Notes under the pieces: generated by a model
What the model was told of the DNA's origin: nothing
Database searches by the model: none
Seen by the model: only the letters and a program-made list of their open reading frames with translations
Shown: positions 7,626 through 44,635 of the stretch, one piece after another
How the letters are laid out: every line of letters begins with the position of its first letter
Position numbering within the stretch: the stretch's first letter is position 1
Assembly: GCA_934465535.1 (NCBI GenBank)
Contig: CAKSKV010000001.1
Location: 167,974 to 231,973, forward strand
Direction of reading: 5' to 3'
DNA: 64,000 nt
From: an uncultured Clostridia bacterium
GTDB taxonomy: Bacteria; Bacillota; Clostridia; Christensenellales; QALW01
Translations under genes and position numbers: made by a program

Positions 7626-8102
7626 ATGTTCAGAGAGATAAGAAACAGAAAAAAGGAAACGGATATTAAGACGGCGGAGGCGCTGCTGATAAACAGCCGC
7701 ATTGGTGTTTTGGCCGTAAACGGCGACAACGGCTACCCGTATGCGATACCGATCAATTATATCTATGATAAGGATGCCCGGAAAATATATTTTCACGGGG
7801 CAAAGGCAGGGCATAAGGCAGACGCTTTGCGTGCTTGTGATAAGGTGTGCTTTACCGTTTACGGAAAGGAAACCGTAAAAGAAGAGGCATGGGCACCGTT
7901 TGTGCAAAGCACGGTGGTGTTCGGCAGGTGTCGGTTTATAAAGGAAGGATCTGAGGCGGAGGCACTGCTTGGCCGTTTGGCAATGAAGTATTACCCGGAT
8001 GAGCAGACGGTACGGGAGGAAATTGCCCGCGCGGGCAAGGCGGTACAGATGTTTGAAATAGAGGTAGAGCATATCAGCGGCAAGGAGATACAGGAGCGCT
8101 GA
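7626..8102 (+). CDS. pyridoxamine 5'-phosphate oxidase-like FMN-binding protein (NimA-like)
   Basis: PNPOx split-barrel family sequence features. Confidence 0.7.
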   Translation: MFREIRNRKKETDIKTAEALLINSRIGVLAVNGDNGYPYAIPINYIYDKDARKIYFHGAKAGHKADALRACDKVCFTVYGKETVKEEAWAPFVQSTVVFGRCRFIKEGSEAEALLGRLAMKYYPDEQTVREEIARAGKAVQMFEIEVEHISGKEIQER

Positions 8103-8216
8103 GCCGCCGGCGGGCGGGGCTGCATTGTGCCGATGTGATGAAGCAAGGGCGGAGATTGCCGATGCGCCGGCAAAGGCACGCAGCTGCACGGAACAAAGGA
8201 AACGGAAGGCAGCGTT

Positions 8217-8963
8217 TTACCGCGCGAGATATTCGTCAAATTCCTCGCGGCTGCCGTTAAAGACATTCATATTCATATCGATAAAGCGTTCCCTGCCGTT
8301 ATAGCCCTTGAGGCGGGCGCGGTCGTTATATTGCCAAAAGCGCCAGCTTTCCTTTGGGCTTACCGGCAGGTATACGCTGCGGATCCAAAGGTCGCAATCG
8401 TCAAAATCAGAGCCGAGAATGCTGTTTTTTGCCGCCTGCGTGGTGTAGATGACGGGGGTTTTATTATAAATACGGCGCAGACCGTCCACAAAGCCGCGCA
8501 GCTCGCGCTTTACGGCGGCTGCATCAATGTCGCGGGCAGAGCGGAAGCTGCCGTAAAATTCAACATCCACAACGGGAGGAAGCATGCCGGAAAGGTCACC
8601 CGTTACGGCGTGAAAATGCTCAAGCTGCGTGGAGAACGGGGATTCAAAGCTGAAAAAATGGTATGCGCCCGCCGCGAGTCCCGCGTCTAAAGCGCCTTTA
8701 ATGTTTGCGGCATATTGAGGATCGGTGTACGATGAGCCCTCGGTGGCCTTTATAAAGGCAAAGGAAATGCCCTGAGAAGCAAGCAGCGGCCAGTCGGCCT
8801 GCCCTTGGTGGGCGGAAATATCCACGCCCTTTACGGGATATTTACTGCCCGGCTCGTTGAAACGGAGAATGCCCTGGAAAAAGAGCACAAGGATAAGCAG
8901 GATGACTGCAATGACGGTGCACGATGAAATAAGCAGCCAAAGCCGCGTTTTACGCTTTAACAT
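8217..8963 (-). CDS. GH25 family lysozyme (muramidase), membrane-anchored
   Basis: GVDISAHQG...FAFIKATEG GH25 motifs; N-terminal TM helix; strong RBS AAGGAGA before ATG at 8963. Confidence 0.8.
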   Translation of the reverse strand: MLKRKTRLWLLISSCTVIAVILLILVLFFQGILRFNEPGSKYPVKGVDISAHQGQADWPLLASQGISFAFIKATEGSSYTDPQYAANIKGALDAGLAAGAYHFFSFESPFSTQLEHFHAVTGDLSGMLPPVVDVEFYGSFRSARDIDAAAVKRELRGFVDGLRRIYNKTPVIYTTQAAKNSILGSDFDDCDLWIRSVYLPVSPKESWRFWQYNDRARLKGYNGRERFIDMNMNVFNGSREEFDEYLAR

Positions 8964-9238
8964 ACAGGTCTCCTTGGAATTGCGGCAAAAGCCGATTTGC
9001 ATAAGTATAGCATATAACGCTTATAAAAACAATACCGCGGCACAAAGACCGTAAAAAGCGAAAAAGGGCATTTGCCGATTTGCGCCGCCTGAGGTACAGC
9101 AAAGAGAGGAAAAGAGTTGAAAATTGCCCGGCATTGTGGTATTATATTAACCTGATAATGCTGCGCAAAATTGCATGTCGGCAAAGTTTTTTGCCGCCGG
9201 AGCAAAGAAAAGCGCATATAACGGAAAAGAGGCTTTTT

Positions 9239-9991
9239 ATGAAGGACAATATACCCGCCGGGAGCGAGGATGTTAAAGAGCGGGAAAAACTGAAGGAGAC
9301 GGCTTGCACGGCAGGGGAGGCTGCATCGGATGCACGGGCCTGCACGGAGGAAAACGCCTTAGTAAACGAAAACGAAACGGAACTGTACGGCGACGAAACG
9401 AAGCCTTCGGAAGGCAATGCGGCATCAGGGGGCAGCGGCACTTTTTCCGAGGAGATAACGGGAATTGATACCTCCTTTGAGCAGAGCGTACGCAAGCCGG
9501 ATTACACGCAGGACAAAAAGCGGTATCGGCTTTACAACATAATGATGTATGTAAGCATTGCGGCGGCGGGCATGGGAGTTGTTTTCCTGCTGCTGGGCGC
9601 ATATGTTTTCGGAGCGGCGGATATTGTGTTCTGGGCGGGGCTTACGGTGCTGTTTTATCATCTTAAGGACGGCGCCGTGATTGAATACGATTATGAATTT
9701 TCCGACGGCGCACTGCGTATTGCGCGCATAAGCAACGGTGAAAAGCGCAAGGAGCTGCTTTGCGCGGAGTGCGGAAAAATTGAGAGCATTGCGCCGCTTA
9801 ATACGGAAGATATCAAACGCATGGCAGAGACGGGAGAACGCAAAATAAAGGATTATTCCCTTAATGAAGACAGCAGGAAATACTGTGTGCTGTGCAGCGT
9901 TAAAAATGAAAAGCTGGCTGTGATATGGGAACCGAAGCAGTCGCTTCTGCGCCTTATACGCCGCGAGATGCCAAGGTCGGTGACGCTATGA
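9239..9991 (+). CDS. hypothetical membrane protein (acidic N-terminus, 2 TM, Cys-containing C-terminal domain)
   Basis: ORF with TM hairpin; start at MKDN; no recognised family. Confidence 0.5.
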   Translation: MKDNIPAGSEDVKEREKLKETACTAGEAASDARACTEENALVNENETELYGDETKPSEGNAASGGSGTFSEEITGIDTSFEQSVRKPDYTQDKKRYRLYNIMMYVSIAAAGMGVVFLLLGAYVFGAADIVFWAGLTVLFYHLKDGAVIEYDYEFSDGALRIARISNGEKRKELLCAECGKIESIAPLNTEDIKRMAETGERKIKDYSLNEDSRKYCVLCSVKNEKLAVIWEPKQSLLRLIRREMPRSVTL

Positions 9992-11112
9992 TGTATTTTG
10001 ACAACTGCGCAACGACGCAGGTTTTTGATGCGGCTGCGGATACGGCGCTGAGATTTATGAAAAGGGATTATTTCAACAGCTCCGCACCGTATACGGCGGC
10101 GCTTTTTAATGAAAAGGAGCTGCAGCGCGCACGCAGCGCGGCGGCGGCCACCATCGGAGCCGGCGAAAAGGAGCTGTTCTTTACATCGGGGGGGACGGAG
10201 AGCGACAACACTGTGCTTTTCGGTGCGATTTCAAGGCAGCGGGATCGCATTTTGATATCTGCAACCGAACATCCGGCGGTATATGAGGCCGCAATGAGGA
10301 TGAAAACGCGCGCTGCAAGGATAACGGTGCTGCCGGTTGACGGAAACGGCGTTGTAAGCGCACAGGCACTGGAAAATGAATTGGATGATAAATGCGCGCT
10401 TGTAAGCATAATGCATGTAAACAACGAAACGGGGGTTATAAACCCCATAAAGGAGCTGGCGGAGCTGACGCACAGGCTGTCTCCGGGATGCATATTCCAC
10501 AGCGACGGGGTACAGGCGCATATGCGCATAAAGGTAAATGTAAAAGAGCTGGGCGTGGATGCATATTCCGTGAGTGCGCACAAGGTGCATGCCCCAAAGG
10601 GGGTGGGCGCACTGTATGTGGCGCGGGGAACGCGCATTGAACGGCTTTTTGAAGGCGGCGGGCAGCAGGACGGCTTCAGGTCCGGCACGGTGAATCTGCC
10701 GGGGATAGCGGCGTACGCAGCGGCGCTTAAGGAATTTGAGGATGTCCGCGCCGTTGACAGAATAAAAGAAATAAAGAATATATTCCTTACGGAGCTTAAG
10801 GGCTGTGTTATAAATTCAGCGGGGGCGCAGACGGCGCCGCACATTGTAAGCGCGGCATTTCCGGGGCTTCAGGCTTCCACGCTGCAGAATGCGCTGGAGG
10901 AAGCGGGAGTGATCGTGGGAAAGGGCAGCGCATGCTCCTCGCGCAGCAGCCGTATTTCAAGAACGATGGAAAGCATGGGGCTTGATAGAAGTATTGCACA
11001 GGGAACGGTGCGCATAGGAATAGGCGCGCTTAACACAAAGGATGAGGCGGCGCAGGCGTGCCGGATTATAAACGAAATTTCCGCAGGATTGTTGAGGTTC
11101 AAAAGAAGATGA
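9988..11112 (+). CDS. cysteine desulfurase (NifS/IscS family, class V aminotransferase)
   Basis: PLP-dependent desulfurase motifs (SAHK, GSACSS); ATGA overlap with thiI. Confidence 0.85.
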   Translation: MMYFDNCATTQVFDAAADTALRFMKRDYFNSSAPYTAALFNEKELQRARSAAAATIGAGEKELFFTSGGTESDNTVLFGAISRQRDRILISATEHPAVYEAAMRMKTRAARITVLPVDGNGVVSAQALENELDDKCALVSIMHVNNETGVINPIKELAELTHRLSPGCIFHSDGVQAHMRIKVNVKELGVDAYSVSAHKVHAPKGVGALYVARGTRIERLFEGGGQQDGFRSGTVNLPGIAAYAAALKEFEDVRAVDRIKEIKNIFLTELKGCVINSAGAQTAPHIVSAAFPGLQASTLQNALEEAGVIVGKGSACSSRSSRISRTMESMGLDRSIAQGTVRIGIGALNTKDEAAQACRIINEISAGLLRFKRR

Positions 11113-12281
11113 GCAGCTGTATATTGGTAAAGGTGGGAGAGGTGCACTTAAAGGGACTTAACCGCCCGTATTTTGAAAAAAAGCTTGCAGAGCACATCAG
11201 GGCGGCGGTGCGCCCCTTCGGCGGCAAGGTGAACAGCGCACAGAGCAGAATATATGTGCATAATATAAGCGATGAGAATATGGAGGCGGCAACGGAGCGC
11301 CTGCGCAGGGTGTTCGGAATTCATGCGCTTTCGGTGGCAACCGAGGCGGAAAAGGATATTGACGCGCTATGCAAAGCCGTGATTGAGGTGATGGCGCAGC
11401 AGGGAATAACCAAGGGCAGCTTCAAGATAAAGGCGCGCAGAAGCGATAAGCGCTTCCCCATGGAATCGCCGGAGATATGCGCGCATATCGGCGGGGCTGT
11501 ATTGGAGGCGTATCCCGAGATGAAGGTGGATGTGCATGATCCGCAGCACACGATAGAGGTGGAGATACGGGAAAAGGCGTACATATATGCCTCCAGTATT
11601 CCCGCCGTGGGCGGCATGCCGGTGGGCACAAACGGAAAGGCGATGCTGCTGCTTTCCGGAGGCATTGACAGCCCGGTAGCGGGATATATGATAGCCAAAC
11701 GCGGCGTGGTGCTTGAGGCGGTGCATTTTCACAGCTTCCCGCACACATCGGAGCGGGCAAAGCAGAAGGTTATTGATTTGGCAAGGGAGCTTTCGGCTTA
11801 CTGCGGCCCGATAAGGCTGCATATTGTAAGCTTTACAAAGCTTCAGGAGGCGATATACAATAACTGCCCGGATAAGACCATTACGGTGGTAATGCGGCGG
11901 TACATGATGCGTATAGCACAGCAGATAGCAAAGCAGAACGGCGCGGCCGCGCTTATTACGGGGGAGAGCATAGGCCAGGTGGCAAGCCAGACCATGGAGA
12001 GCCTGTGCTGCACTGATGCGGTAACGGATATTCCGGTGTTCCGTCCGCTTATAGGCATGGACAAGCTGGAAATTATGAACAGAGCCGAGGAAATAGGTAC
12101 ATATAAAACCTCCATTTTGCCCTATGAGGATTGCTGTACGGTGTTTACGCCCAGGCATCCGGTTACACATCCCACATTAGAGCTTATGGAGGAGGCGGAG
12201 AAATGCTTTGACGGGCAGGAAATGCTTAAAGAGGCGATAGAAACCGCAGAGCTTATGGAGATACGCCCGGAGCAGGCCTGA
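11109..12281 (+). CDS. thiI: tRNA 4-thiouridine synthase ThiI
   Basis: THUMP + PP-loop (SGGIDSPVA) ; canonical nifS-thiI pairing. Confidence 0.85.
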   Translation: MSSCILVKVGEVHLKGLNRPYFEKKLAEHIRAAVRPFGGKVNSAQSRIYVHNISDENMEAATERLRRVFGIHALSVATEAEKDIDALCKAVIEVMAQQGITKGSFKIKARRSDKRFPMESPEICAHIGGAVLEAYPEMKVDVHDPQHTIEVEIREKAYIYASSIPAVGGMPVGTNGKAMLLLSGGIDSPVAGYMIAKRGVVLEAVHFHSFPHTSERAKQKVIDLARELSAYCGPIRLHIVSFTKLQEAIYNNCPDKTITVVMRRYMMRIAQQIAKQNGAAALITGESIGQVASQTMESLCCTDAVTDIPVFRPLIGMDKLEIMNRAEEIGTYKTSILPYEDCCTVFTPRHPVTHPTLELMEEAEKCFDGQEMLKEAIETAELMEIRPEQA

Positions 12282-12562
12282 TACGGTGCTTTTCGGCAAA
12301 AATGAAGGCGCGTAAGGGGCTGCTGATTGTGCAAAACGGAAGCCTCTGCCGGGTGCCTTTTAATAGAGAAATAAATCATGGTGTTATTGATATGCGCTTT
12401 GAAAGCATTCGGCTTTCGGGCGCATATTCTTTTACGCAGCGGCGGTGTGTTTTGCACAACAGCGTTTTTCGGGATATTACAAGCTATACAATAATCGGGC
12501 GCGGGCAAGGCGGAAGAATGCTCGTGCTGAGGAGGTGCCAAGCGGCGCAAAGGCCGCGAGGA

Positions 12563-14908
12563 TTATCCGGCGCGCACAAGTCTGCTGGCCTTGCCCAAAA
12601 GCGGTGAGCCGTCGGCGGCGGTGATCTCCGCATGCTCGGAAACGGCATAATAGCGGGCAGAAGCATCGGCGGTATCCAAAAGAGAAAGCGTTTCGCCGCT
12701 TTTGCCGCGCAGCACGCCTATAAGCCTGTGATTGCCGTTTTCCGTTCTGTATATGCGGTAGAGAGTGTAGGAATTGCGCGCGGTTATGGTTACGGTATTG
12801 CCGTTTTCGCCGTGCAGGGCAAAGATATCGCAGGCCTCCGGGGCGCGGTAATAGGAGGAGTAGTTCTGCGGCCGGGTGTCGTTTGTGAAAAGCTCCGTTA
12901 TTCTGTTTTCCTTGGGTGTAAGATCGGTTGCCAGCTCAAGAGAGCCTCGCAAGAGCGCTCGTGCATCAAGCGTGGCGCGGACTATGCCGTCGGGGACGCG
13001 GTCCGGCTCGGGGGCGCAGCGGCTGCGCGAAAAGGCGAACAGCCGCGCTGCCATTTCGGACGGATATTTGCTGCCGGTTGCGCTGTCGGGCAGGCAGTGA
13101 GCATCATCCGTGGTGTCAAAGCCCTGCCATATGGCAACTGTCAGCCGGCTGTCATATGCTGCCACCCATATATCCGAGTTTGTATCTGCGCTGCGGGATG
13201 CGGTGCCGGTTTTGGCGCTGACCCCGTTTAGGGCAGAAAGGGGGCTTCCCGGCTTTTTTGCGGCGTCTTTTAATATATCGCTGATGATATATGCCGTTTG
13301 CGGTGAAAACACACGCTTTTGCTCGCCTGCGGCGCGCTTATAGAGCACCGTGCCGTCTGCCGAGGTTACCTTGCGGACAAAATATGGGGAGGCACGCAGT
13401 CCGCCTGCTGCAAGGCATTGATAGGCGGAGGCAGCCTCCATGGGGCTTATGCCGTAGGTAAAGCCGCCCAGCGCCAGTGCAAGCCCGTTATCGGCAGGGT
13501 CGAAGGTTATGCCCAGAAGGCGGGCATAACTTTTTGCGACATCGATTCCGCAGGAGGAGAGTATTTCCACGGCGGGAACATTCAGGGATTTTACAAGGGC
13601 AGTGCGTGCGGTTACCGCGCCGTAGTATTTATCGTGAAAATTATTCGGGCTGTAACCGTCAAAATCTTTTTTTTCATCAACAAAAACCGTAGCGGCGGTG
13701 ATTTTTCCGGTTTCCAGCGCGGGGGCATATACAAGCAGCGGCTTTATCACGGAGCCTGGACGGCGGCGGGCGGAAACGGCGCGGTTAAAGCACAATCGCG
13801 CGCAATAGCTGCGTCCTCCCTCCAATGCAAGCACGGCGCCGGTTTTTGAATCAAGACACACGGCGGCGCATTCCGTCTGCGCGGAAGGAAAGAGAGAATC
13901 CTCCTTAAGCAGACCGCTGAGGGTGTCGGCAAGCCCGGAGTCAAGAGTGGTGTATATGGAATAGCCGCCGGAGAGCAGCTCGTCTGCGGAAAGCGAGGTG
14001 AGGACAGCGGCACTTTGCAGTGCACAATCGGCATAGTAGCCGTAGTTGTAGTCAAAATATGAGCATGGAACGGTTTCAAGCGGTGTTTTAAGCGCAAAAT
14101 TAAGAGCGGCAAGGTCGATCAGACCGTTTTTGTACATAAGCTGAAGCACGGTGTTGCGGCGGCTTGTGCAGGCGCTTGGGTGCGCGGGGGAATAAAGCGA
14201 CGGGGCCTTAACCGTGGCTGCAAGGGCGGCGGATTCGGGAAGGGTAAGTTCGGAGGCACTTTTGTTAAAGTATGTCCGCGCGGCGGCTTCTATGCCGTAA
14301 GCGCCGTTTCCGAAATACACATAATTGAGGTACATCTGCATTATTTCCTCTTTTGAAAAGCGGGCTTCCAACTGACAGGCAAGCAACGCCTCCTGTATTT
14401 TTCTCGAAAGCTTTTTTGTGCCGGAAAGATGACTGTTTTTTATCAGCTGCTGCGTGATGGTGCTGCCGCCCTGTTTGTAGCTGCCGGATTTTATATCCGT
14501 TAAGGCCGCTGCGAATATGCGGCGCAGGTCTATGCCGTTATGGCTGTAAAAGCGGGCATCCTCCGCTGCGACAAAGGCATTTTTTACATCTGGGGGAAGC
14601 TCGGAGAGTTCGATGAATATCCGGCGCTGACTGCCGCTTGCGGTAAGGGCCAGTTCGTCGTCGGAGTCGTAAATGCGCAGGCTTTCCGGAATATCGGTTA
14701 TTGCCTGAGGTGAGAGATCCACCATGGGAAAATTTTTGAAAAACAAAAGCAGCGCAAGGAGAACAAACGCTGTTATGCACAGATAGACAAGCAGCAGCTT
14801 TATAAAAAATGCTGCGCCGATATCGCCGTACAGGACGCAGGAGCAGTCCGTTTGAGTATTTGCGCCGTTTGCGCGGGATAAATATGTTTTTTTGCGAGGC
14901 TGTTTCAT
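12563..14908 (-). CDS. class A penicillin-binding protein (transglycosylase + transpeptidase)
   Basis: GT51 motifs (EDARFYSHNGID, GGSTITQQ), SxxK (SVIKP), KTGT; N-terminal TM anchor. Confidence 0.85.
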   Translation of the reverse strand: MKQPRKKTYLSRANGANTQTDCSCVLYGDIGAAFFIKLLLVYLCITAFVLLALLLFFKNFPMVDLSPQAITDIPESLRIYDSDDELALTASGSQRRIFIELSELPPDVKNAFVAAEDARFYSHNGIDLRRIFAAALTDIKSGSYKQGGSTITQQLIKNSHLSGTKKLSRKIQEALLACQLEARFSKEEIMQMYLNYVYFGNGAYGIEAAARTYFNKSASELTLPESAALAATVKAPSLYSPAHPSACTSRRNTVLQLMYKNGLIDLAALNFALKTPLETVPCSYFDYNYGYYADCALQSAAVLTSLSADELLSGGYSIYTTLDSGLADTLSGLLKEDSLFPSAQTECAAVCLDSKTGAVLALEGGRSYCARLCFNRAVSARRRPGSVIKPLLVYAPALETGKITAATVFVDEKKDFDGYSPNNFHDKYYGAVTARTALVKSLNVPAVEILSSCGIDVAKSYARLLGITFDPADNGLALALGGFTYGISPMEAASAYQCLAAGGLRASPYFVRKVTSADGTVLYKRAAGEQKRVFSPQTAYIISDILKDAAKKPGSPLSALNGVSAKTGTASRSADTNSDIWVAAYDSRLTVAIWQGFDTTDDAHCLPDSATGSKYPSEMAARLFAFSRSRCAPEPDRVPDGIVRATLDARALLRGSLELATDLTPKENRITELFTNDTRPQNYSSYYRAPEACDIFALHGENGNTVTITARNSYTLYRIYRTENGNHRLIGVLRGKSGETLSLLDTADASARYYAVSEHAEITAADGSPLLGKASRLVRAG

Positions 14909-37476: not shown

Positions 37477-37522
37477 ACAGTCTTTTACGGCATTTCGGGC
37501 GGCATCGCGCCCGTGGTTGTTA

Positions 37523-38170
37523 TTATGCTGCTTTGCTTTTGTATGATTTATAAAACATCCTGTCATTAAATATCTTTTTGATTGGCTTTGGTAAACGCGG
37601 GCATTCCTCAATAGCTAATTCCAGCACTTTCCTTGGACTGATGCGCTTGCGGTTAGCTAATGCAACCGCGTCAATTGCAGATACTTCTGTTTTGCAAGCG
37701 TCAATAAGGCGTTCCATAAACCGCGGAAAACTGTCAATATACTCTTTTTTAATGCCGTAGTTGATATCTATGTAATTGTAATTTGAAAAATTTAAGTATT
37801 TTTTCGAACCGGATGTCGAATTATTCTGCAAAACAATTATTTCCGGCTCGCCGGAATATCTCCAGTTTGAAAGCCGTCCCCGCAATTCATCACAGGCTTC
37901 CGTAAAACACTTGTCGCTGTATTGCCATTTTTGATTATCTGTTCCGGGAATCTCCGTCACATCGGAATAATTACGGCCAAAATTCGGAGAATATCCAAGC
38001 CAATAAATTGAACAGTATTTTTTTGAACGATAGTGAAGATAATTGATTTTTTTGATATATTCTTCAGCACTCGAGTCGGAGGGCTTCACCAATAACAAAA
38101 CGATTACATGATTTCCTTCAAGTAATTTTTCTTGTTTTTCAATACCCGCTATGTTATTTATCGGATACAT
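37523..38170 (-). CDS. hypothetical protein, low-GC, last gene of the TIR operon
   Basis: ORF with RBS GGAGAA before ATG 38170; AT-rich codon usage unlike neighbours; no family recognised. Confidence 0.45.
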   Translation of the reverse strand: MYPINNIAGIEKQEKLLEGNHVIVLLLVKPSDSSAEEYIKKINYLHYRSKKYCSIYWLGYSPNFGRNYSDVTEIPGTDNQKWQYSDKCFTEACDELRGRLSNWRYSGEPEIIVLQNNSTSGSKKYLNFSNYNYIDINYGIKKEYIDSFPRFMERLIDACKTEVSAIDAVALANRKRISPRKVLELAIEECPRLPKPIKKIFNDRMFYKSYKSKAA

Positions 38171-38269
38171 CTGATTCTCCTTTTTTCCACACAAATTTAC
38201 TTAATACTTTTTGCAATTTATAGGTATGTCCAGATGACAAATAAGGGCAATAGCCTAAAAGTATTTGCT

Positions 38270-41074
38270 TTATTCATTTTTCATAGAGTCAAGATCAATC
38301 CATAAGGCGGGACGAACACCGCAACCGTCACTGGTGACAAATCCGTTACTTTTGTAACAGAGGCCACCGGAAGAGGACATGACAAAAGCAGCGTAGTAAG
38401 GGCCGGTGAGCGACCGCAGCCACCACGCATCAGCACCACTACCTGCTGCGTGTGCTTTTGCGTAAGCTGTAAAGGCGCATTTTCGTGCATGGTTATCACT
38501 GAAGTATTTTTCCACTTCGTTGTAACTGAGCAGGAATACTTTATCCGTTGTTGCATTGCCGGGATCTGTGTAGTAGTTCAGAATTTTATCGACAGATACG
38601 GTGCTGCTTTGAATCAGCGCCCTTTCTTCTTCGCTGAATGCCTCATTAAGAAAAGAGTCATTCAGCCATTTGCGAAGAGAGCATTGCTCCCATGTGATGG
38701 CTTTTCTTGTTTCGTAGTATGGCTTTTCGTTGTAGGGCTGGAAGTCAAGAACTTTATTGCTTATGACAAGTATTTTATTGCTTTCCTTTGCTAAAACAAG
38801 CCATTCAATATCTTCTGCGCCGTTAGAAGTGACATTATCCTGTTCATAGGTTCCGAAAGTAAATTTATCTCCAATAGCTAAAAGCTGTTTGCATTTTGTT
38901 TTTATGTATTCACATTTTTCTTTGCTGTCTTTATAGGAAATATCTTTCAGAAGTATATAGGCGGATTCATAATCGCCCGAATCTATACATTTAATGGCTC
39001 TGTCATATTTGCTTGCGAAGATGGTGTCGATGTCGTTGATTTCTCTAAGCAGGGTGTACGCAGAATCGAAATTGCCGGAATCGAGCAGCTTCATAGCTCT
39101 GCTCCGTTTGCTGGAAGCTATGGTTTCGCTGTCGCCGATTTCTTCAAGCAGGGTGTACGCAGAATCGAAATTGCCGGAATCGAGCAGCTTCATAGCTCTG
39201 CTCCGCTTGCTGGAGGCTATGGTTTCATTGTCATCGATTTCTTTAAGCAGGGCGTATGCGGAATCGTAGTCTTCCGATTCAAGCAGCTTCATTGCGCGGT
39301 TATACTTGCTAACTTTGATATCATCATCTTTGTTTATTTCTTCAAGCAAGGAATAGGCGGAATCGTAATCTCCCGATTCCAGCAAATTCATCGCTTTGTT
39401 ATACTTCAGCTGCGGAATAATGACCATGTTCAGCACGATTACAAAGGCTATGCAGACACATAAAACGGGAGTGGCAATGGCAGCAAACTTTTTGAGCCGT
39501 TTTGCCCTTTTTGCGGCGGCAATTCGCTTTTCTTCTATCCGTTTTTGGCAGGCGTATATTTGGCTGTCGGCATCCCGCCAGCCGGGAATGGTCTTAAATA
39601 TCGCTATTGCTTCCTCGTATGAAGCGGTGTTCCCGACGGCCCTCCTTGATATTGCAGTGGTGTACAATGCGTCCTTGCGGCAGCTTTCCGCTTTTTCAAG
39701 GCATTGCGCGGCAAGTGCGTCGGCATCGCGGAAGCCGGAAATGCTTTTGAACAGCTCGGCTCCTTTAAGAAAGGCATTTTGCGCCGCAGCGGACTTCATA
39801 ATGCCGCATGCATTGTTATAAATTGCGCTCTTACGGCGCGTTTCGTTGCGCTCGTTTATAATGTCTATATATCCGCGCAGCTCCGTATTCAGCGCTTCAT
39901 CGCCAAAGCGGAGAATTTTTAAGTAGTTTTCGTTTTTGTCAAACGGCTGCGCGCAGTCGCTCAGCTGCCCGCGCTTTGGAACCTGCAGCTCCGCCATCAG
40001 CTTGCCCAGATACGCCTGTGCATTTTTCGGGTCTATATCCAGCACCTTTTCGCAGTAGGTGTCGGCGTCGGACCATTTGCCGTCCTCAAGGAAAAGAAAC
40101 GTCCGTTCCAGAAGGGGCGCAGCGCCCGTGCTGCCCGCGGCTGCCGGCGCGGCAGGCTTTGCGGCGTTTTTTTGCCCGTCGGAGGATACTATCTTTTTTA
40201 TACCCCGTATAAGGTCCTGCATAAAGCCTAACTTGCCCATATCCTGCGCCTGAAGGTGGGAGAATTCCTCGGGCAGATCGTAGGGGTCCATGTCCTTATA
40301 GGCGGGAATAAGCATTTTTTTGGCGCCGTTTTTAATAAGCGCAAGGTAACGGCTCCACTCGTTTTTTACCCATACGGCGTTGAAATATTCCGGCCTTGTG
40401 CCCAAAACCACCATGACCTTTGCGCTGTTAAGGGCGGCGAATATGTACGGCTCGTAGGCGGAGCCCAGCTTGTCCTCCAGAGTAATACGGCTGAAGAACA
40501 CCTTGAAGCCCTCCTGCGTCAGCTGGTGGTAAAGGTCGTTTGCCAGCACGCTGTCGGGCGTTCTTGCACCGCGGCTGTCGGTTTCCTTATAGCAGATAAA
40601 TACATCAAAGGGCTCCTCCTTCTGTGAAATTGCAAGAATGCCCTTTTGAATTTCATTTATTGCCTTGGCCTCGGCTTCGTAAATTTCCTTTTGGGCGGCG
40701 TCGGCGCAGCGCAGAGCGGATTTGTAGTTATCATCGTCAAAGACGGAGGTAAACTGCGCCCTGTTCACCGTGGGAATGCGCTTGCCGGTGGCCGGGTCCT
40801 CCACATATTCAATACCGTAGCGGCAAAGCACAAGGGACCAATAAGCCTCGGCGTCGGTGCTGTCCTCGGCCAGAATCTGTTCGTATATGCTCATTGCCTT
40901 GTCGTATTCGTTATTGCGGCGGAAATGATTTGCCCGGTCATACAGGTTTGCCTTTTTATCGTCGTCAAGGCGGGGAAGGGTCTGCTTGGTGCCGCAGCTG
41001 TCGCACACGGCAACTGTGTCGCCGGGATTAAATTCCAGTGTCCCGCCGCACATTTTACATTTGAAGATTGCCAT
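38270..41074 (-). CDS. type II membrane protein: N-terminal Zn-ribbon + TIR domain + TPR-like region, single TM, 5 tandem 33-aa repeats, C-terminal DUF6273-like extracellular domain
   Basis: TIR motifs DVFICYKE, VMVVLGT, WVKNEW (putative catalytic Glu); TM AIATPVLCVCIAFVIVLNMVII preceded by KRAKRLKK; ATG 41074 overlaps upstream stop (TAATG) with RBS AGGAG. Confidence 0.8.
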   Translation of the reverse strand: MAIFKCKMCGGTLEFNPGDTVAVCDSCGTKQTLPRLDDDKKANLYDRANHFRRNNEYDKAMSIYEQILAEDSTDAEAYWSLVLCRYGIEYVEDPATGKRIPTVNRAQFTSVFDDDNYKSALRCADAAQKEIYEAEAKAINEIQKGILAISQKEEPFDVFICYKETDSRGARTPDSVLANDLYHQLTQEGFKVFFSRITLEDKLGSAYEPYIFAALNSAKVMVVLGTRPEYFNAVWVKNEWSRYLALIKNGAKKMLIPAYKDMDPYDLPEEFSHLQAQDMGKLGFMQDLIRGIKKIVSSDGQKNAAKPAAPAAAGSTGAAPLLERTFLFLEDGKWSDADTYCEKVLDIDPKNAQAYLGKLMAELQVPKRGQLSDCAQPFDKNENYLKILRFGDEALNTELRGYIDIINERNETRRKSAIYNNACGIMKSAAAQNAFLKGAELFKSISGFRDADALAAQCLEKAESCRKDALYTTAISRRAVGNTASYEEAIAIFKTIPGWRDADSQIYACQKRIEEKRIAAAKRAKRLKKFAAIATPVLCVCIAFVIVLNMVIIPQLKYNKAMNLLESGDYDSAYSLLEEINKDDDIKVSKYNRAMKLLESEDYDSAYALLKEIDDNETIASSKRSRAMKLLDSGNFDSAYTLLEEIGDSETIASSKRSRAMKLLDSGNFDSAYTLLREINDIDTIFASKYDRAIKCIDSGDYESAYILLKDISYKDSKEKCEYIKTKCKQLLAIGDKFTFGTYEQDNVTSNGAEDIEWLVLAKESNKILVISNKVLDFQPYNEKPYYETRKAITWEQCSLRKWLNDSFLNEAFSEEERALIQSSTVSVDKILNYYTDPGNATTDKVFLLSYNEVEKYFSDNHARKCAFTAYAKAHAAGSGADAWWLRSLTGPYYAAFVMSSSGGLCYKSNGFVTSDGCGVRPALWIDLDSMKNE
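38845..39335. repeat. five tandem 99-bp repeats inside the TIR-protein gene (encode 33-aa repeats SGxFDSAYxLLxEIxD...)
   Basis: period-99 recurrence of AAGCAGGGTGTACGCAGAATCGAAATTGCCGGAATCGAGCAGCTTCATAGCTCTGCTCCG at 39047, 39146, 39245; two units ~95% identical. Confidence 0.7.
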
Positions 41075-41523
41075 TATACTGACTCCTTTTTGATAATATT
41101 TATCCAAGATAGCAAAGTATCTTCATAGAGAATGATTCTTGCTTTTTCGTAGCCTTTATAGTTGGAAAAATAATAAATTCGCGTCTTTTTGTAACATCTT
41201 ACATTAAAACTGCCGTGCGCTAACGCGTTTCTAATAGCGGAAAATAGGGAGGAAACCACTCCGTTTTCATCATTTGCTAAAAATACGCAATACTCGTCCG
41301 GATATGTAATTGCTTCGCATTTTCTGAAATTTGAAGGTAACTCGCTTTTTTTGCTTGGCATATAGTTGCCCTTCAAGCTTGGGGTTGCGGCCTGTAAAAG
41401 ATTGTTCTTTAGTTTGGTAAAAGAAGGAGATCTGCTGTATCCAAGCTGTTTGAAAGTTTTTCCTCTGTGGCTCTTTCCTTCAACAGGACATTCAAATAAA
41501 TAAAACTGAATGATTTTTTGCAA
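41074..41523 (-). CDS. small HEPN-like protein (Rx4H motif IRNALAHG)
   Basis: Rx4H motif typical of HEPN RNases; AT-rich; start uncertain (TTG 41523 or ATG 41361). Confidence 0.4.
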   Translation of the reverse strand: MQKIIQFYLFECPVEGKSHRGKTFKQLGYSRSPSFTKLKNNLLQAATPSLKGNYMPSKKSELPSNFRKCEAITYPDEYCVFLANDENGVVSSLFSAIRNALAHGSFNVRCYKKTRIYYFSNYKGYEKARIILYEDTLLSWINIIKKESV

Positions 41524-41579
41524 GTTTTTATTTGATATGCTTGAAGGTTCTGTGAAATTTGTGCAATACTTAGCGTTTT

Positions 41580-42278
41580 TTACTTCATCGCCTTACACTT
41601 TCCGTTTCGCTCTGCCAGAGTATCCAGCAGGCTTTGCGCCGCCTCTGTCGCGCCCTGACCGGCGTTTACGGCATTTTCAAACGCCTTGAATTCCTTTTCA
41701 AGCTCCGCCTCAATCGCGCTTAATGCCTCGCTGCTTACGGGGTCGGAATATCGCAGCGCCTCATATACCTTTTTTGCCGCCGCTTTTTCGTCCGGGTTTT
41801 TGGCTTTGGCAAGCAGCGTTTCGGCGTTTACTGTTAAAAGCTTTATAAGCTGTGTCTGCGCTTTTACCTTTTCTTCAACGGCATCGGCAGCCTTTCCCGC
41901 CCAATCGGCACGGACAACGGCCGCTGCGGTAACGGCTGCGGCAATCAGGCACACAACGGCGGCAATCCATGCGGGGCAGCCCGGAATAAGCATAAGCGCT
42001 CCGCCCAGCACCAGCATAACAATCAACCCCGCGTAGCTGACGGTTATAAGCGGCAGATTGTAAAACAGCTTTTTAAGGTTCTGTGCCTTAAAGGCAAAAT
42101 ATGCGCAGACGAGATTTCCGATAAAAGCCGCGAGAATAAATCCCCACGCAATCCAGAAACGCGCATCGTAATTGACCACATATCCCGGAATTATGGGACA
42201 AACAAGAAACACGACAGCATTAAACACTACAAGCATGATTGCCCATATCAGCGCATACGATTTGAAATTCCTTTTCAT
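41580..42278 (-). CDS. membrane protein: 4 TM helices plus C-terminal coiled coil
   Basis: hydrophobic N-terminal half, Ala/Glu/Lys-rich helical C-terminal half. Confidence 0.55.
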   Translation of the reverse strand: MKRNFKSYALIWAIMLVVFNAVVFLVCPIIPGYVVNYDARFWIAWGFILAAFIGNLVCAYFAFKAQNLKKLFYNLPLITVSYAGLIVMLVLGGALMLIPGCPAWIAAVVCLIAAAVTAAAVVRADWAGKAADAVEEKVKAQTQLIKLLTVNAETLLAKAKNPDEKAAAKKVYEALRYSDPVSSEALSAIEAELEKEFKAFENAVNAGQGATEAAQSLLDTLAERNGKCKAMK

Positions 42279-42293
42279 TGTCCGTTCCTCCTG

Positions 42294-43436
42294 TTATAAA
42301 ATGCTTTTAAGCAGCTCTGCCTTCATGGCGGCGAATTCCTCATCGGTAATCAGCCCGGCGTTTTTCATCACCGTCAGCTTTTCCGCTTTTGCTTTGAATG
42401 TCGCCATATCATCGGCGGGTTGTGCTGCCTGCTGCGGCTGAGCCGGCTGCGCCGCTGCGCTTACGGCGTTATTTACTGCGCCGCCCACCATGCCGCTTAC
42501 TGCGCCGCCGACACCCGCCATTGTGCCAAAGCCTATTCCCATATTGGTAAACTGACCAACCGCCTCGTTCTGCGCCGCCGTCTGCGCCACATCAAAGCTG
42601 CGCTCCTGCGCGTATGTATAGCCCTCCTGCGCCCGCTTTGTGGCCTGCGCCTGAGAATCTATCACTATTTTCTGCGCCTCTGTCTGGGCGTTTATGATAT
42701 CGGTCTGCTGCTTAAGCTTGGCTTCGGCAATATCCGCATACTGGCGGAAATGCAGCTCCTTGAATTTTTCATACTGCTTCTCGCCGTCCGGCTTTACTAT
42801 GGTGGTTACAAAAAATCTTTCCAGCGCAATGCCGTAATCGGCAAAGTCCGGAATAAGAAGCTTATGCAGATTCTCGGAAAAGGCCGTCAGGTTTTCGTCA
42901 ATTTCAAAAATATTTATGGAATTTGCCCGTATGACCTGAGCGATATATGTTTTTACCCTTGTCATAAGAAAAGCACGGAAAAAACCGGTCAGCTGCTGCT
43001 GCCCCAAAAAGCTTTCCGTTCCCACAAGCTTTATAAGCAGCCTGCGGCTGTCCTGCACGCGCAGGCTCATTTCGCCCGATGCGCCTATCGAAATGGGGAA
43101 GCGGTATGTTGGGTCGATATACTGTATTTTGGAATCGGTTCCCCATTTGATAGCCATCTGCTCGGTTTTGTTTATAAAATAAACCTCGCAGTGGAATGGG
43201 GTCTTATCGCCGACGGTGCGGTTGAGCAGCTTTCCGATTTTTGGTATGTTCTGTGTTTCCAGCGTATACCTGCCCGGCCCGAACAGGTCAAGCGCCTGCC
43301 CGTTCATGAAAAATACGGCTTCCTGCGATTCATGCACGATAAGCTGTGTAAGAGTGTTGAAATCTTCGCATGGGTGCTTCCAGATGAAGGTGGAATTATC
43401 CCCCTCGTATTTGATTACATCTGCAATTTGTGCCAT
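42294..43436 (-). CDS. SPFH/band-7 (YdjI-like) protein with C-terminal SHOCT domain
   Basis: band_7_1-like core; C-terminal GLITDEEFAAMKAELL SHOCT motif; RBS GGGAGG before ATG 43436 (ORF-track extension to 43553 runs into the inverted repeat). Confidence 0.7.
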   Translation of the reverse strand: MAQIADVIKYEGDNSTFIWKHPCEDFNTLTQLIVHESQEAVFFMNGQALDLFGPGRYTLETQNIPKIGKLLNRTVGDKTPFHCEVYFINKTEQMAIKWGTDSKIQYIDPTYRFPISIGASGEMSLRVQDSRRLLIKLVGTESFLGQQQLTGFFRAFLMTRVKTYIAQVIRANSINIFEIDENLTAFSENLHKLLIPDFADYGIALERFFVTTIVKPDGEKQYEKFKELHFRQYADIAEAKLKQQTDIINAQTEAQKIVIDSQAQATKRAQEGYTYAQERSFDVAQTAAQNEAVGQFTNMGIGFGTMAGVGGAVSGMVGGAVNNAVSAAAQPAQPQQAAQPADDMATFKAKAEKLTVMKNAGLITDEEFAAMKAELLKSIL

Positions 43437-43452
43437 TAAAATACCTCCCTGT

Positions 43453-43483
43453 AACATAATCTGCATTATGTTGTAGTGCAAGT
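43453..43483. repeat. left arm of perfect 31-bp inverted repeat (AACATAATCTGCATTATGTTGTAGTGCAAGT)
   Basis: exact reverse complement of 43737..43767. Confidence 0.9.
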
Positions 43484-43670
43484 AAAAAAAGATCGCAGTG
43501 CCCGTAAAAAAATTTGTCACAAAAACCGTGCAAAATAAAAAAAGGCGCAGCAAAGCAGGCCTTTTCGAAAAAAGTTGAAAAAATAACGCGAAAAGGCTTT
43601 TTCGGCATGCCTGATTTTTGACGGCGGGGGCAGAAGCGACTGTTTTTTTTGGTCAAATATTTACAAACTA

Positions 43671-43699
43671 TTTACAAAGTGCCCCCATTATGCTATAAT
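43671..43699 (+). promoter_or_regulatory. near-consensus sigma-A promoter inside invertible segment (TTTACA-17 bp-TGcTATAAT), currently firing away from the SPFH/TIR operon
   Basis: -35 TTTACA 43671..43676, 17-bp spacer, extended -10 TGcTATAAT 43691..43699. Confidence 0.6.
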
Positions 43700-43736
43700 T
43701 AAGCATATAATGATGTTGTTTGTCATACTCGTGGGA

Positions 43737-43767
43737 ACTTGCACTACAACATAATGCAGATTATGTT
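43737..43767. repeat. right arm of perfect 31-bp inverted repeat
   Basis: exact reverse complement of 43453..43483. Confidence 0.9.
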
Positions 43768-43792: not shown

Positions 43793-44635
43793 TTATATTA
43801 TCAGATGCAGGTTCTCCATGCGGCGGCGGTGTTCTGCACCGGAGGATATAATATATATACGCGTGGTGTTTATGCTGCTGTGACCCAGAATATCGGCAAG
43901 CTTTGCAAGGTCTTTTTCGATCTCATAAAACAGCCGGGCAAACAAATGCCGCAGATTATGGGGAAACACCTTTTTCGGGCTGACATTTGCCCGCGTACAC
44001 AGCGCTTTCATCTCCCGCCAGATATTTGTTCGGTTAAGCGGCTTTCCCAAACGCGTTATAAATATCATACCCTCCTTTATTCCTTTTTTTGCAGCATACT
44101 TAAGCAGCTTTTGCCGCAGCTCCTTCACAAGGAAAACCGAGCGCGTTTTTCCCTTGCAGCTAACAAGCGCTTCGCCGCGTTTTGCCGCATCCACCGTTAT
44201 ATGCTGCAGCTCGCTTACCCGTATGCCCGTGCTGCACAGCGTTTGCAATACAAGGCAGAGCCGTTTGTTGCCGGAATGCCGCGCCGCTTCGCACAGCCGC
44301 GTGTATTCGGCCTTTGTAAGTTCCTTTTCCTCGGAACAGAACGCTTGCTGCTGAAGTGATACCGATTTTACCTTCAGGTCATGCCAGCCCATAAGGGAAA
44401 ACAGAACATTCAGGCTTGTGAGCATTGAATTAACACTGCGCACGGAATAGTTATCCCGCAGCCGCTTTTTGTACGCAATAACAGTTTCCTTGGTAACGGG
44501 GCCGCTTTGGGCATAGCGCGAAAACGCCGTTGCATCGCGGATATATTTTTCCACCGTTGCGCCGCTTCGCTCCTCAAAGATAAGATGCTTTTTGAATCCG
44601 GCAATGGCATTTGCCGTTATAAACCGCTCTTTCAT
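43793..44635 (-). CDS. tyrosine site-specific recombinase (phage integrase/XerD-like fold)
   Basis: HxxR (HNLRH) and C-terminal LGHSSINTTRIY catalytic Tyr motif. Confidence 0.85.
   Translation of the reverse strand: MKERFITANAIAGFKKHLIFEERSGATVEKYIRDATAFSRYAQSGPVTKETVIAYKKRLRDNYSVRSVNSMLTSLNVLFSLMGWHDLKVKSVSLQQQAFCSEEKELTKAEYTRLCEAARHSGNKRLCLVLQTLCSTGIRVSELQHITVDAAKRGEALVSCKGKTRSVFLVKELRQKLLKYAAKKGIKEGMIFITRLGKPLNRTNIWREMKALCTRANVSPKKVFPHNLRHLFARLFYEIEKDLAKLADILGHSSINTTRIYIISSGAEHRRRMENLHLII

Follow-up and report, generated by a model that had tools for sequence, protein, structure and literature searches.

TIR NADases work through oligomerisation, and in the RecV and cwpV switch of C. difficile a recombinase controls an invertible promoter, the product giving phase-variable phage resistance. 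SHOCT-like domains are predicted tethers to the inner leaflet. In Bacillus subtilis the Band_7_1 protein YdjI is soluble and requires YdjG and YdjH for its membrane localisation (PMC8581546), Band7-like domains have been proposed as scaffolds in conflict systems (PMC7159879), and DUF6273 has been described as a C-type-lectin-like target of diversity-generating retroelements (DGRs) (PMC10743442; bioRxiv 10.1101/2024.10.15.618418). Here we describe a gene cluster in 64,000 nucleotides of contig CAKSKV010000001.1 from an uncultured Clostridia bacterium (assembly GCA_934465535.1), this whole stretch being referred to as the window. An original prediction, made from the letters of the window, had singled out four adjacent genes in this cluster, for an SPFH protein, a protein with four transmembrane (TM) helices (4-TM protein), a small HEPN-like protein and a TIR protein.

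What is conserved in gut Clostridia is a unit of an SPFH protein, a partner with four membrane helices and a TIR protein that spans the membrane and has a lectin domain facing outwards. We lean, at somewhat better than even confidence, towards a composite in which a phase-variable operon encodes TIR receptors with a lectin ectodomain, organised by the SPFH and 4-TM proteins, and carries a variable cassette slot; our confidence is far higher for this architecture than for any mechanism. In the window the genes form a tight co-directional row on the minus strand, in the order recombinase, SPFH, 4-TM, small open reading frame (ORF), TIR and an ORF of 215 amino acids (aa). All four predicted ORFs were present on the minus strand in the order proposed, and their co-directional and tight packing agrees with the single operon that had been suggested. 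Absent from the four-gene picture were the recombinase with its putative invertible promoter, a fifth gene and the link to DGRs. The features are as follows.

43793..44635, minus strand: tyrosine recombinase, 280 aa (Pfam Phage_integrase, E=6.7e-26)
43453..43767, no strand: putative invertible promoter segment, 315 bp, with 31-nt inverted repeats around 253 bp
43671..43699, plus strand: sigma-70-like promoter in the segment, TTTACA-17-TGnTATAAT, 11/12 matches
42294..43436, minus strand: soluble SPFH/Band_7_1 protein with borderline C-terminal SHOCT, 380 aa (Band_7_1 at 42783-43349, SHOCT at 42309-42380)
41580..42278, minus strand: 4-TM protein with cytoplasmic helical bundle and conserved RYSDP motif, 232 aa
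41074..41583, minus strand: pEK499_p136-like small gene with HEPN-type motif (RNALAH at 41215-41232)
38270..41074, minus strand: type-II membrane TIR protein, 934 aa (TIR_2 E=2e-11, DUF6273 E=3e-28)
37523..38170, minus strand: recurrent accessory gene without known domain, 215 aa

The SPFH, 4-TM and TIR gene unit

Conservation of the unit was investigated by a scan of one genome per species seeded with the 4-TM family, which gave 80 loci whose six-frame ORFs were searched with the window proteins. Nearly all of these loci are labelled Clostridia (Oscillospiraceae, Lachnospiraceae, Acutalibacteraceae and Ruminococcus), and the closest, at 93% identity, lies in a complete Oscillospiraceae chromosome (L009). 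All 70 loci that could be assessed have the SPFH gene immediately ahead of the 4-TM gene, and 66 of 73 contain a homologue of the Zn-ribbon-TPR-TIR protein, often as two to three tandem paralogues. The seven loci without a TIR domain comprise three without any related protein and four with a related protein minus the TIR, three of which keep the Zn-ribbon N-terminal region and DUF6273. The HEPN-like family, on the other hand, was found in only a handful of the 80 loci. The expectation that the whole gene set would be co-conserved therefore holds for SPFH, 4-TM and TIR and fails for the HEPN-like gene, which is absent from most loci. A further variant combines a Band_7_1 gene with Zn ribbons and four tandem TIR genes (L174/L175). 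The operon is chromosomal and widespread in gut and rumen Clostridia, and the region first described is its front half.

The SPFH protein matches Pfam Band_7_1 with 133.7 bits against a cut-off of 24 (E=9.2e-39), so that this part of the predicted SPFH-SHOCT composition stands firmly. Its SHOCT match of 26.1 bits falls marginally below the cut-off of 27, and homologues carry weak SHOCT matches too; the protein ends in ...GLITDEEFAAMKAELLKSIL at its C-terminus. TM segments were called by a hydropathy scan and structures were taken from AlphaFold models throughout; no TM segment was predicted by hydropathy in the SPFH protein, and it gave no match to PDB sequences. A ribosome-binding site, AGGGAGG, precedes its ATG, and the 4-TM gene starts 15 nt past its stop.

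Hydropathy located TM segments of the 4-TM protein at residues 9-27, 41-59 and 104-122, and the AlphaFold model (predicted local distance difference test score, pLDDT, 72.5) showed an additional fourth helix at residues 77-97, which together back the four helices first assigned to this 232-aa protein. In the model TM4 extends into a long helix followed by a confident C-terminal helical bundle. The protein had no Pfam match above threshold and no TPM domain in the Pfam search. A DUF4231/SLATT identity (PF14015) was considered, but the match is too weak to use (E=0.0062, 17.4 bits against 24.7), and only 6 of 22 homologues show a similarly weak one. By analogy with the Ydj proteins, the 4-TM protein is the probable membrane anchor of the SPFH protein. 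On one 4.6-kb contig (P0095) the reading frame of the 4-TM protein continues into the short TIR cassette, giving a product of 378 aa, a fusion that may be genuine or may reflect a sequencing error at the stop codon.

The 215-aa product of the fifth gene matches nothing in Pfam, NCBIfam or PADLOC, and 73 homologues of it were found. The gene follows the TIR gene in L172, lies inside the cluster of Band_7_1 and four TIR genes in L174/L175 and is also found in L091. The gene row is flanked by an amino-acid ATP-binding cassette transporter ATPase gene on one side and by minD/minE/rodA/dxs on the other.

The TIR protein, its ectodomain and the putative promoter switch

The small ORF and the TIR gene overlap at TAATG (41076-41072), TAA being the stop of the former and ATG the start of the latter, in agreement with the translational coupling that had been predicted, and because of this overlap the start of the TIR protein is placed at 41074, giving 934 aa. 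The following parts were located on the minus strand.

40967-41065, minus strand: Zn ribbon
40838-40945, minus strand: TPR
40235-40603, minus strand: TIR_2, with WVKNE(E239)W at 40355-40372
39431-39487, minus strand: TM helix, with KRAKRLKK on its N-terminal side
38940-39406, minus strand: five tandem 33-aa (99-nt) repeats (repeat family D1)
38294-38779, minus strand: DUF6273 / C-type-lectin-like domain

The TIR_2 match scored 44.9 bits against a cut-off of 28. The TIR is the best-conserved part of the protein, its AVWVxNEWSR motif being at least 90% conserved over 76 homologues, and E239 aligned with the WxxxE glutamate in WTEYE of a bacterial TIR (7uxr) and in WCLME of a plant TIR (7vu8). 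Judged from these alignments, the TIR domain looks catalytically competent. The only TM helix has basic residues on its N-terminal flank, an arrangement that puts the Zn ribbon, TPR and TIR in the cytoplasm and leaves the repeats and DUF6273 outside the cell. The protein is thus no plain cytoplasmic abortive-infection effector but spans the membrane in type-II orientation, and its ectodomain is C-type-lectin-like. The extracellular stalk repeats (38940-39406) gave TPR_19 and FimV C-terminal-like matches.

Pairs of variable and template repeats were found at the 3′ (DUF6273) end of the TIR gene in three of the loci fetched and in these only, with mismatches falling almost exclusively at template adenines.

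L073, 14011-14830: repeat pair, 16/17 mismatches at template adenines
L034, 13623-15662: repeat pair, 21/21 mismatches at template adenines
L048, 13695-14523: repeat pair, 18/21 mismatches at template adenines

The repeat pair of L034 is adjoined by genes for bAvd and for a reverse transcriptase (RVT_1). The adenine-specific repeat pairs, together with the bAvd and reverse transcriptase genes of L034, therefore identify the TIR receptors as DGR targets in some genomes.

At the other end of the row, perfect 31-nt inverted repeats (I1, 100% complementary) lie at 43453-43483 and 43737-43767, in the interval that separates the recombinase gene from the SPFH gene. Their core, ACATAAT-N4-ATTATGT, occurs at these two sites only in the 64 kb, where 0 are expected by chance. 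The promoter in the segment is near-consensus with an extended -10 and is oriented away from the operon (OFF). Transcription from it in this state runs antisense into the recombinase gene, entering at the 3′ end. The recombinase itself has Xer-like NCBIfam matches, all below their cut-offs, and 15 of the 80 loci have close homologues of it ahead of SPFH. The inverted-repeat architecture is present in 13 of 14 assessable recombinase-bearing loci, with diverged repeat sequences, and also in two loci without a detected recombinase (L039 and L049), of which L049 is on a contig that ends at the position expected for the recombinase. The best promoter is directed into SPFH in L049, L062 and L067 and away from it in eight others, in mirrored geometry. 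Repeats, promoter and adjacent site-specific recombinase, the three parts of an inverton, are thus all found at this locus. The ON junction is predicted as CGCAGCAGAAGC, the repeat and AAAAAAAGATCGCAG.

Both orientations occur across species, and inversion of the segment within a strain is putative. The recombinase is a candidate invertase for the adjacent segment, and the operon is probably phase-variable in the lineage of the window. The end of a Logan contig (L089) exactly at a repeat arm was rejected as evidence of inversion, since at k=31 the assembly graph breaks at a 31-nt inverted repeat regardless of inversion. A terminator in the OFF-oriented segment was likewise rejected, as the fold was no better than shuffled sequence (z=-0.99) and a terminator scan of the segment found none.

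The HEPN-like gene and the variable slot

The interval between the 4-TM and TIR genes is variable. In the 63 loci in which a TIR gene follows the 4-TM gene, the gap was at most 120 nt in 27, short and without a sizeable ORF in 4, and occupied by an insert of at least 400 nt in 32. Besides the HEPN-like family of the window the following inserts were found.

Short TIR: 4 loci (PADLOC PDC-S66, E=1e-40)
DUF2971 / PDC-S31-like: 6 loci (Pfam DUF2971; PADLOC PDC-S31)
Protein of 230-250 aa without match: 5 loci
DUF4365: 2 loci (Pfam DUF4365, E=5e-13)
Protein of 140 aa without match: 2 loci
Protein of 398 aa: 1 locus (weak PADLOC SIR2 match)
HEPN-like, two further subfamilies with RNxFAH or RNGIAH: 2 + 2 loci (PF18736, 20.0 and 21.4 bits)

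The last two scores belong to slot genes of L031 and L064, and three HEPN-like subfamilies in total thus occupy the slot. The HEPN-like gene had been treated as a fixed member of the operon, a picture that does not survive its absence from most loci and a slot holding many unrelated genes or none.

The small ORF of the window, which ends at 41074, contains SAIRNALAHGSF. Its product has 93 homologues of 163-185 aa, among which IRNALAHG is near-invariant and the Rx4-6H pattern with a polar residue after the arginine is present. R118 and H123 are invariant in 33 homologues, down to 32% identity, and N119 is at least 90% conserved; the RNxxxH motif is therefore not due to chance. The prediction had named a lack of conserved homologues as a ground for abandoning the small ORF, and the homologues found share the invariant RNxxxH. 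The description as a textbook HEPN was, by contrast, too strong. The match to Pfam PF18736 (HEPN pEK499_p136) reached 13.9 bits against a cut-off of 26.6 (E=0.047), weak matches to the same profile occurred in 20 of 33 relatives with none at the cut-off (best E=0.0047), and the confident AlphaFold model (pLDDT 88.8, predicted template-modelling score 0.86) has a mixed alpha/beta fold. On its motif and profile matches the small protein is best labelled pEK499_p136-like with a HEPN-type motif, as distinct from a demonstrated HEPN protein.

The 56-nt gap that had been placed before the small ORF is an artefact, because the homologues are 163-185 aa long and the 20 N-terminal residues missing from the called ORF are encoded in frame upstream, without a start codon, of a TTG at 41523 that is the first usable start. 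Relatives (L091-L096) read AAG-TGA-AAA at this point, with a GTG start that overlaps the 4-TM stop (GTGA). The window reads AAG-TAA-AAA, and the ancestral start codon at 41583-41581 is GTA. A single G-to-A change has thus kept the 4-TM stop, now TAA, and destroyed the start of the small gene. With the native GTG lost, the small gene is therefore either silent or translated as a shorter product from the TTG at 41523. In a locus with identical DNA (L088) the gene caller left the small gene uncalled.

A search seeded with the HEPN-like family gave three groups of loci, namely the same operon (L091-L098), a rearranged operon of the order TIR-TIR-HEPN-SPFH-4TM (L105 and L139-L147), and loci without SPFH or TIR, which were the majority of those fetched. 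The neighbours in the third group were restriction-modification (R-M) genes (N6_Mtase, Methylase_S and Eco57I, of type I/IIG R-M loci), phage terminase, HNH and tail genes of prophages, MNT nucleotidyltransferases and integrases. The variability of the slot and these R-M and prophage neighbours therefore mark the small gene as a mobile cassette of the defence-island type that does not define the operon. It has joined the operon repeatedly, and in annotation it is to be treated as an accessory cassette and not as a defining component. The small gene probably either encodes an auxiliary effector of the RNase type or is a defence gene in its own right that uses the transcription and translation of the operon.

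In L004-L006 a homologue with 56% identity to the small gene (8001-8537) lies between hsdS genes and an integrase gene, in a multi-hsdS (shufflon-like) type I R-M locus. L001 carries at 8001-13936 two successive pairs of a small gene and a TIR gene, the second small gene having a weak pEK499_p136 match, and the pair seems to duplicate as a unit. When 50,697 phage records were searched by tblastn with the HEPN-like protein, nothing was found; a phage origin was rejected on this result, one viral contig alone having a 4-TM homologue.

The low G+C content claimed for the small ORF was measured as 0.39 across 41000-41499 against about 0.50 on either side. The wider profile drops to 0.38-0.41 at 37500-39000 and 41000-41500, which hold the 215-aa gene, the HEPN-like cassette and the stretch of the TIR gene that encodes the ectodomain, and is 0.50-0.54 in the DNA for the TIR domain, for the 4-TM protein and for most of the SPFH protein. 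This mosaic composition suggests module exchange.

The strongest rival to an integrated operon, which we regard as possible and as falling short of probable, is that the slot genes, the HEPN-like gene included, are autonomous defence or addiction cassettes in a permissive hotspot and functionally unlinked to SPFH, 4-TM and TIR. It accounts well for a family that also occurs in type I/IIG R-M loci, in prophages and beside MNT genes, for slot occupants that match the PADLOC single-gene candidates PDC-S31 and PDC-S66, for the 27 of 63 loci without an insert, for the low G+C content of the cassette and for a window copy that has lost its start codon while the remainder of the operon is intact. It accounts less well for inserts that are always co-directional, without a visible promoter of their own, and overlap the stop and start codons of both neighbours. 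The pEK499-like genes have moreover entered the operon at least three separate times, including its rearranged version, and in L001 the small gene and the TIR gene are duplicated as a pair.

Candidate function and comparison with known systems

The operon is a candidate surface-sensing TIR immune module, a function that we infer from its architecture. The lectin ectodomain would bind a cell-surface ligand, most plausibly a phage component, and ligand binding would drive clustering of the cytoplasmic TIR domains, which once assembled would cleave nicotinamide adenine dinucleotide (NAD+) or make a nucleotide signal. An SPFH oligomer, which the 4-TM protein would keep at the membrane in the way that YdjH keeps YdjI, would corral or restrain the receptors; the cassettes would supply effector functions or merely share expression, and the recombinase would render the whole unit phase-variable. 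More specific, and tentative enough that we think it rather unlikely, is an outside-in innate immune receptor system. Its receptors would be type-II membrane proteins with a variable lectin ectodomain, DGR-hypermutated in some genomes, and a cytoplasmic TIR of the NADase type, a topology like that of Toll-like receptors; an SPFH cage anchored by the 4-TM partner would organise them, a dedicated recombinase would switch expression ON and OFF, and interchangeable effector cassettes (HEPN-like, TIR, DUF2971, DUF4365, SIR2-like) would sit between scaffold and receptor genes. As a candidate surface sensor the operon would give a testable role to the poorly understood Band_7_1 SPFH proteins, and three layers of diversification, the promoter switch, the cassette slot and DGR action on the ectodomain, would meet at one locus in abundant gut Clostridia.

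Several results weigh against the phase-variable immune operon. The exact 58-mer of the ON junction was absent from metagenome contigs, which as consensus assemblies make this a weak test, and the window and its close relatives L088, L090, L091 and L009 all show one orientation, as do L096 and L097. No DGR template repeat was found within the 64 kb of the window. No core protein had a PADLOC match, and no named system corresponds to the cluster. Clustering of TIR proteins by SPFH and contact between the SPFH and 4-TM proteins are steps that we purely infer. The HEPN assignment draws on a motif and on sub-threshold profile matches, and the slot cassettes, themselves candidates for single-gene defence, may only share a hotspot with the TIR gene. 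The near absence of the cluster from viral contigs, one of which has a 4-TM homologue, is neutral on defence.

A further alternative to the immune operon, which we consider improbable, is that the core is an envelope-stress or membrane-organisation module akin to YdjGHI, with the TIR and lectin parts serving cell-wall or surface sensing. The soluble Band_7_1 SPFH protein with an adjoining membrane partner and the third protein with an N-terminal Zn ribbon and a TM helix parallel YdjI, YdjH and YdjG. However, no PspA was found among the annotated neighbours in L001, L088 and L172, and the 4-TM protein is without a TPM domain. The tandem TIR paralogues, DGR hypermutation and defence-type cassettes, like phase variation and varying chromosomal positions, indicate a conflict system. 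Slightly less probable again is that the operon makes a phase-variable adhesin or surface lectin that helps in colonising the host or evading its immunity, under host or immunoglobulin A pressure and not for sensing phage, a reading that would suit the exposed C-type-lectin-like ectodomain with its DGR diversification in relatives, the invertible promoter architecture and the gut hosts, but leaves unexplained the highly conserved cytoplasmic TIR with its intact catalytic glutamate, the obligate SPFH/4-TM pair and the defence-type cassettes.

The impression that the cluster is not a recognised system was borne out, as PADLOC (PADLOC-DB 2.0), NCBIfam and Pfam gave no system-level match for any of the six proteins and full-text literature searches gave no description of such a system. 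The small-gene family resembles PF18736 (HEPN pEK499_p136) in having RNxxxH in the same region of the profile, in its weak repeated matches and in its association with R-M and mobile elements, whereas all its scores are below the gathering cut-off and its predicted fold is mixed alpha/beta.

The PspA-YdjG/YdjH/YdjI system of B. subtilis (PMC8581546; PMC11237479) likewise has a soluble Band_7_1 SPFH protein beside membrane proteins for anchoring, and one of its partners has an N-terminal zinc ribbon and a TM segment. The window operon differs from it in lacking PspA nearby (by the annotated neighbours of L001, L088 and L172), in a membrane partner that is a 4-TM protein with a helical bundle and not a TPM-domain protein, in an SPFH protein that ends in a borderline SHOCT instead of a Zn ribbon, and in a Zn-ribbon protein that carries the TIR, repeats and lectin ectodomain.

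With TIR anti-phage systems (Thoeris ThsB, PDC-S66) the operon shares a TIR_2 domain with the conserved WxxxE glutamate, and short ThsB-like TIR genes fill the cassette slot in some relatives. Unlike Thoeris, it has no ThsA-type partner (SIR2/SLOG or Macro) in the cluster by PADLOC and Pfam, its NCBIfam ThcB4 match reached 29.6 bits against a cut-off of 220, and its TIR belongs to a membrane protein of 934 aa that also has an extracellular domain and whose fixed partners are SPFH and 4-TM.

The DGR C-type-lectin sensors of multicellular bacteria (PMC10907252; PMC7159879) similarly link a DGR-hypermutated lectin to effectors such as TIR, and Band7-like scaffolding domains have been noted in such conflict systems. 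Those are STAND nucleoside triphosphatase (NTPase) or MoxR-vWA ternary systems with mostly predicted cytoplasmic targets, whereas the operon described here is without an NTPase, spans the membrane and is hosted by unicellular gut Clostridia.

As in C. difficile RecV/cwpV, a tyrosine recombinase and short inverted repeats around approximately 200-300 bp stand upstream of a surface-protein operon with ON/OFF expression, while the recombinase lineage, the repeat sequence and the cargo differ and inversion in the window is putative. The cluster thus shares elements with YdjGHI, with TIR defences, with DGR lectin sensors and with clostridial invertible promoters, and by the features that define each of them it belongs to none. 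If the proposed function is true, the combination of a surface-exposed lectin with a cytoplasmic TIR would set this operon apart from the known bacterial TIR defences, which sense inside the cell.

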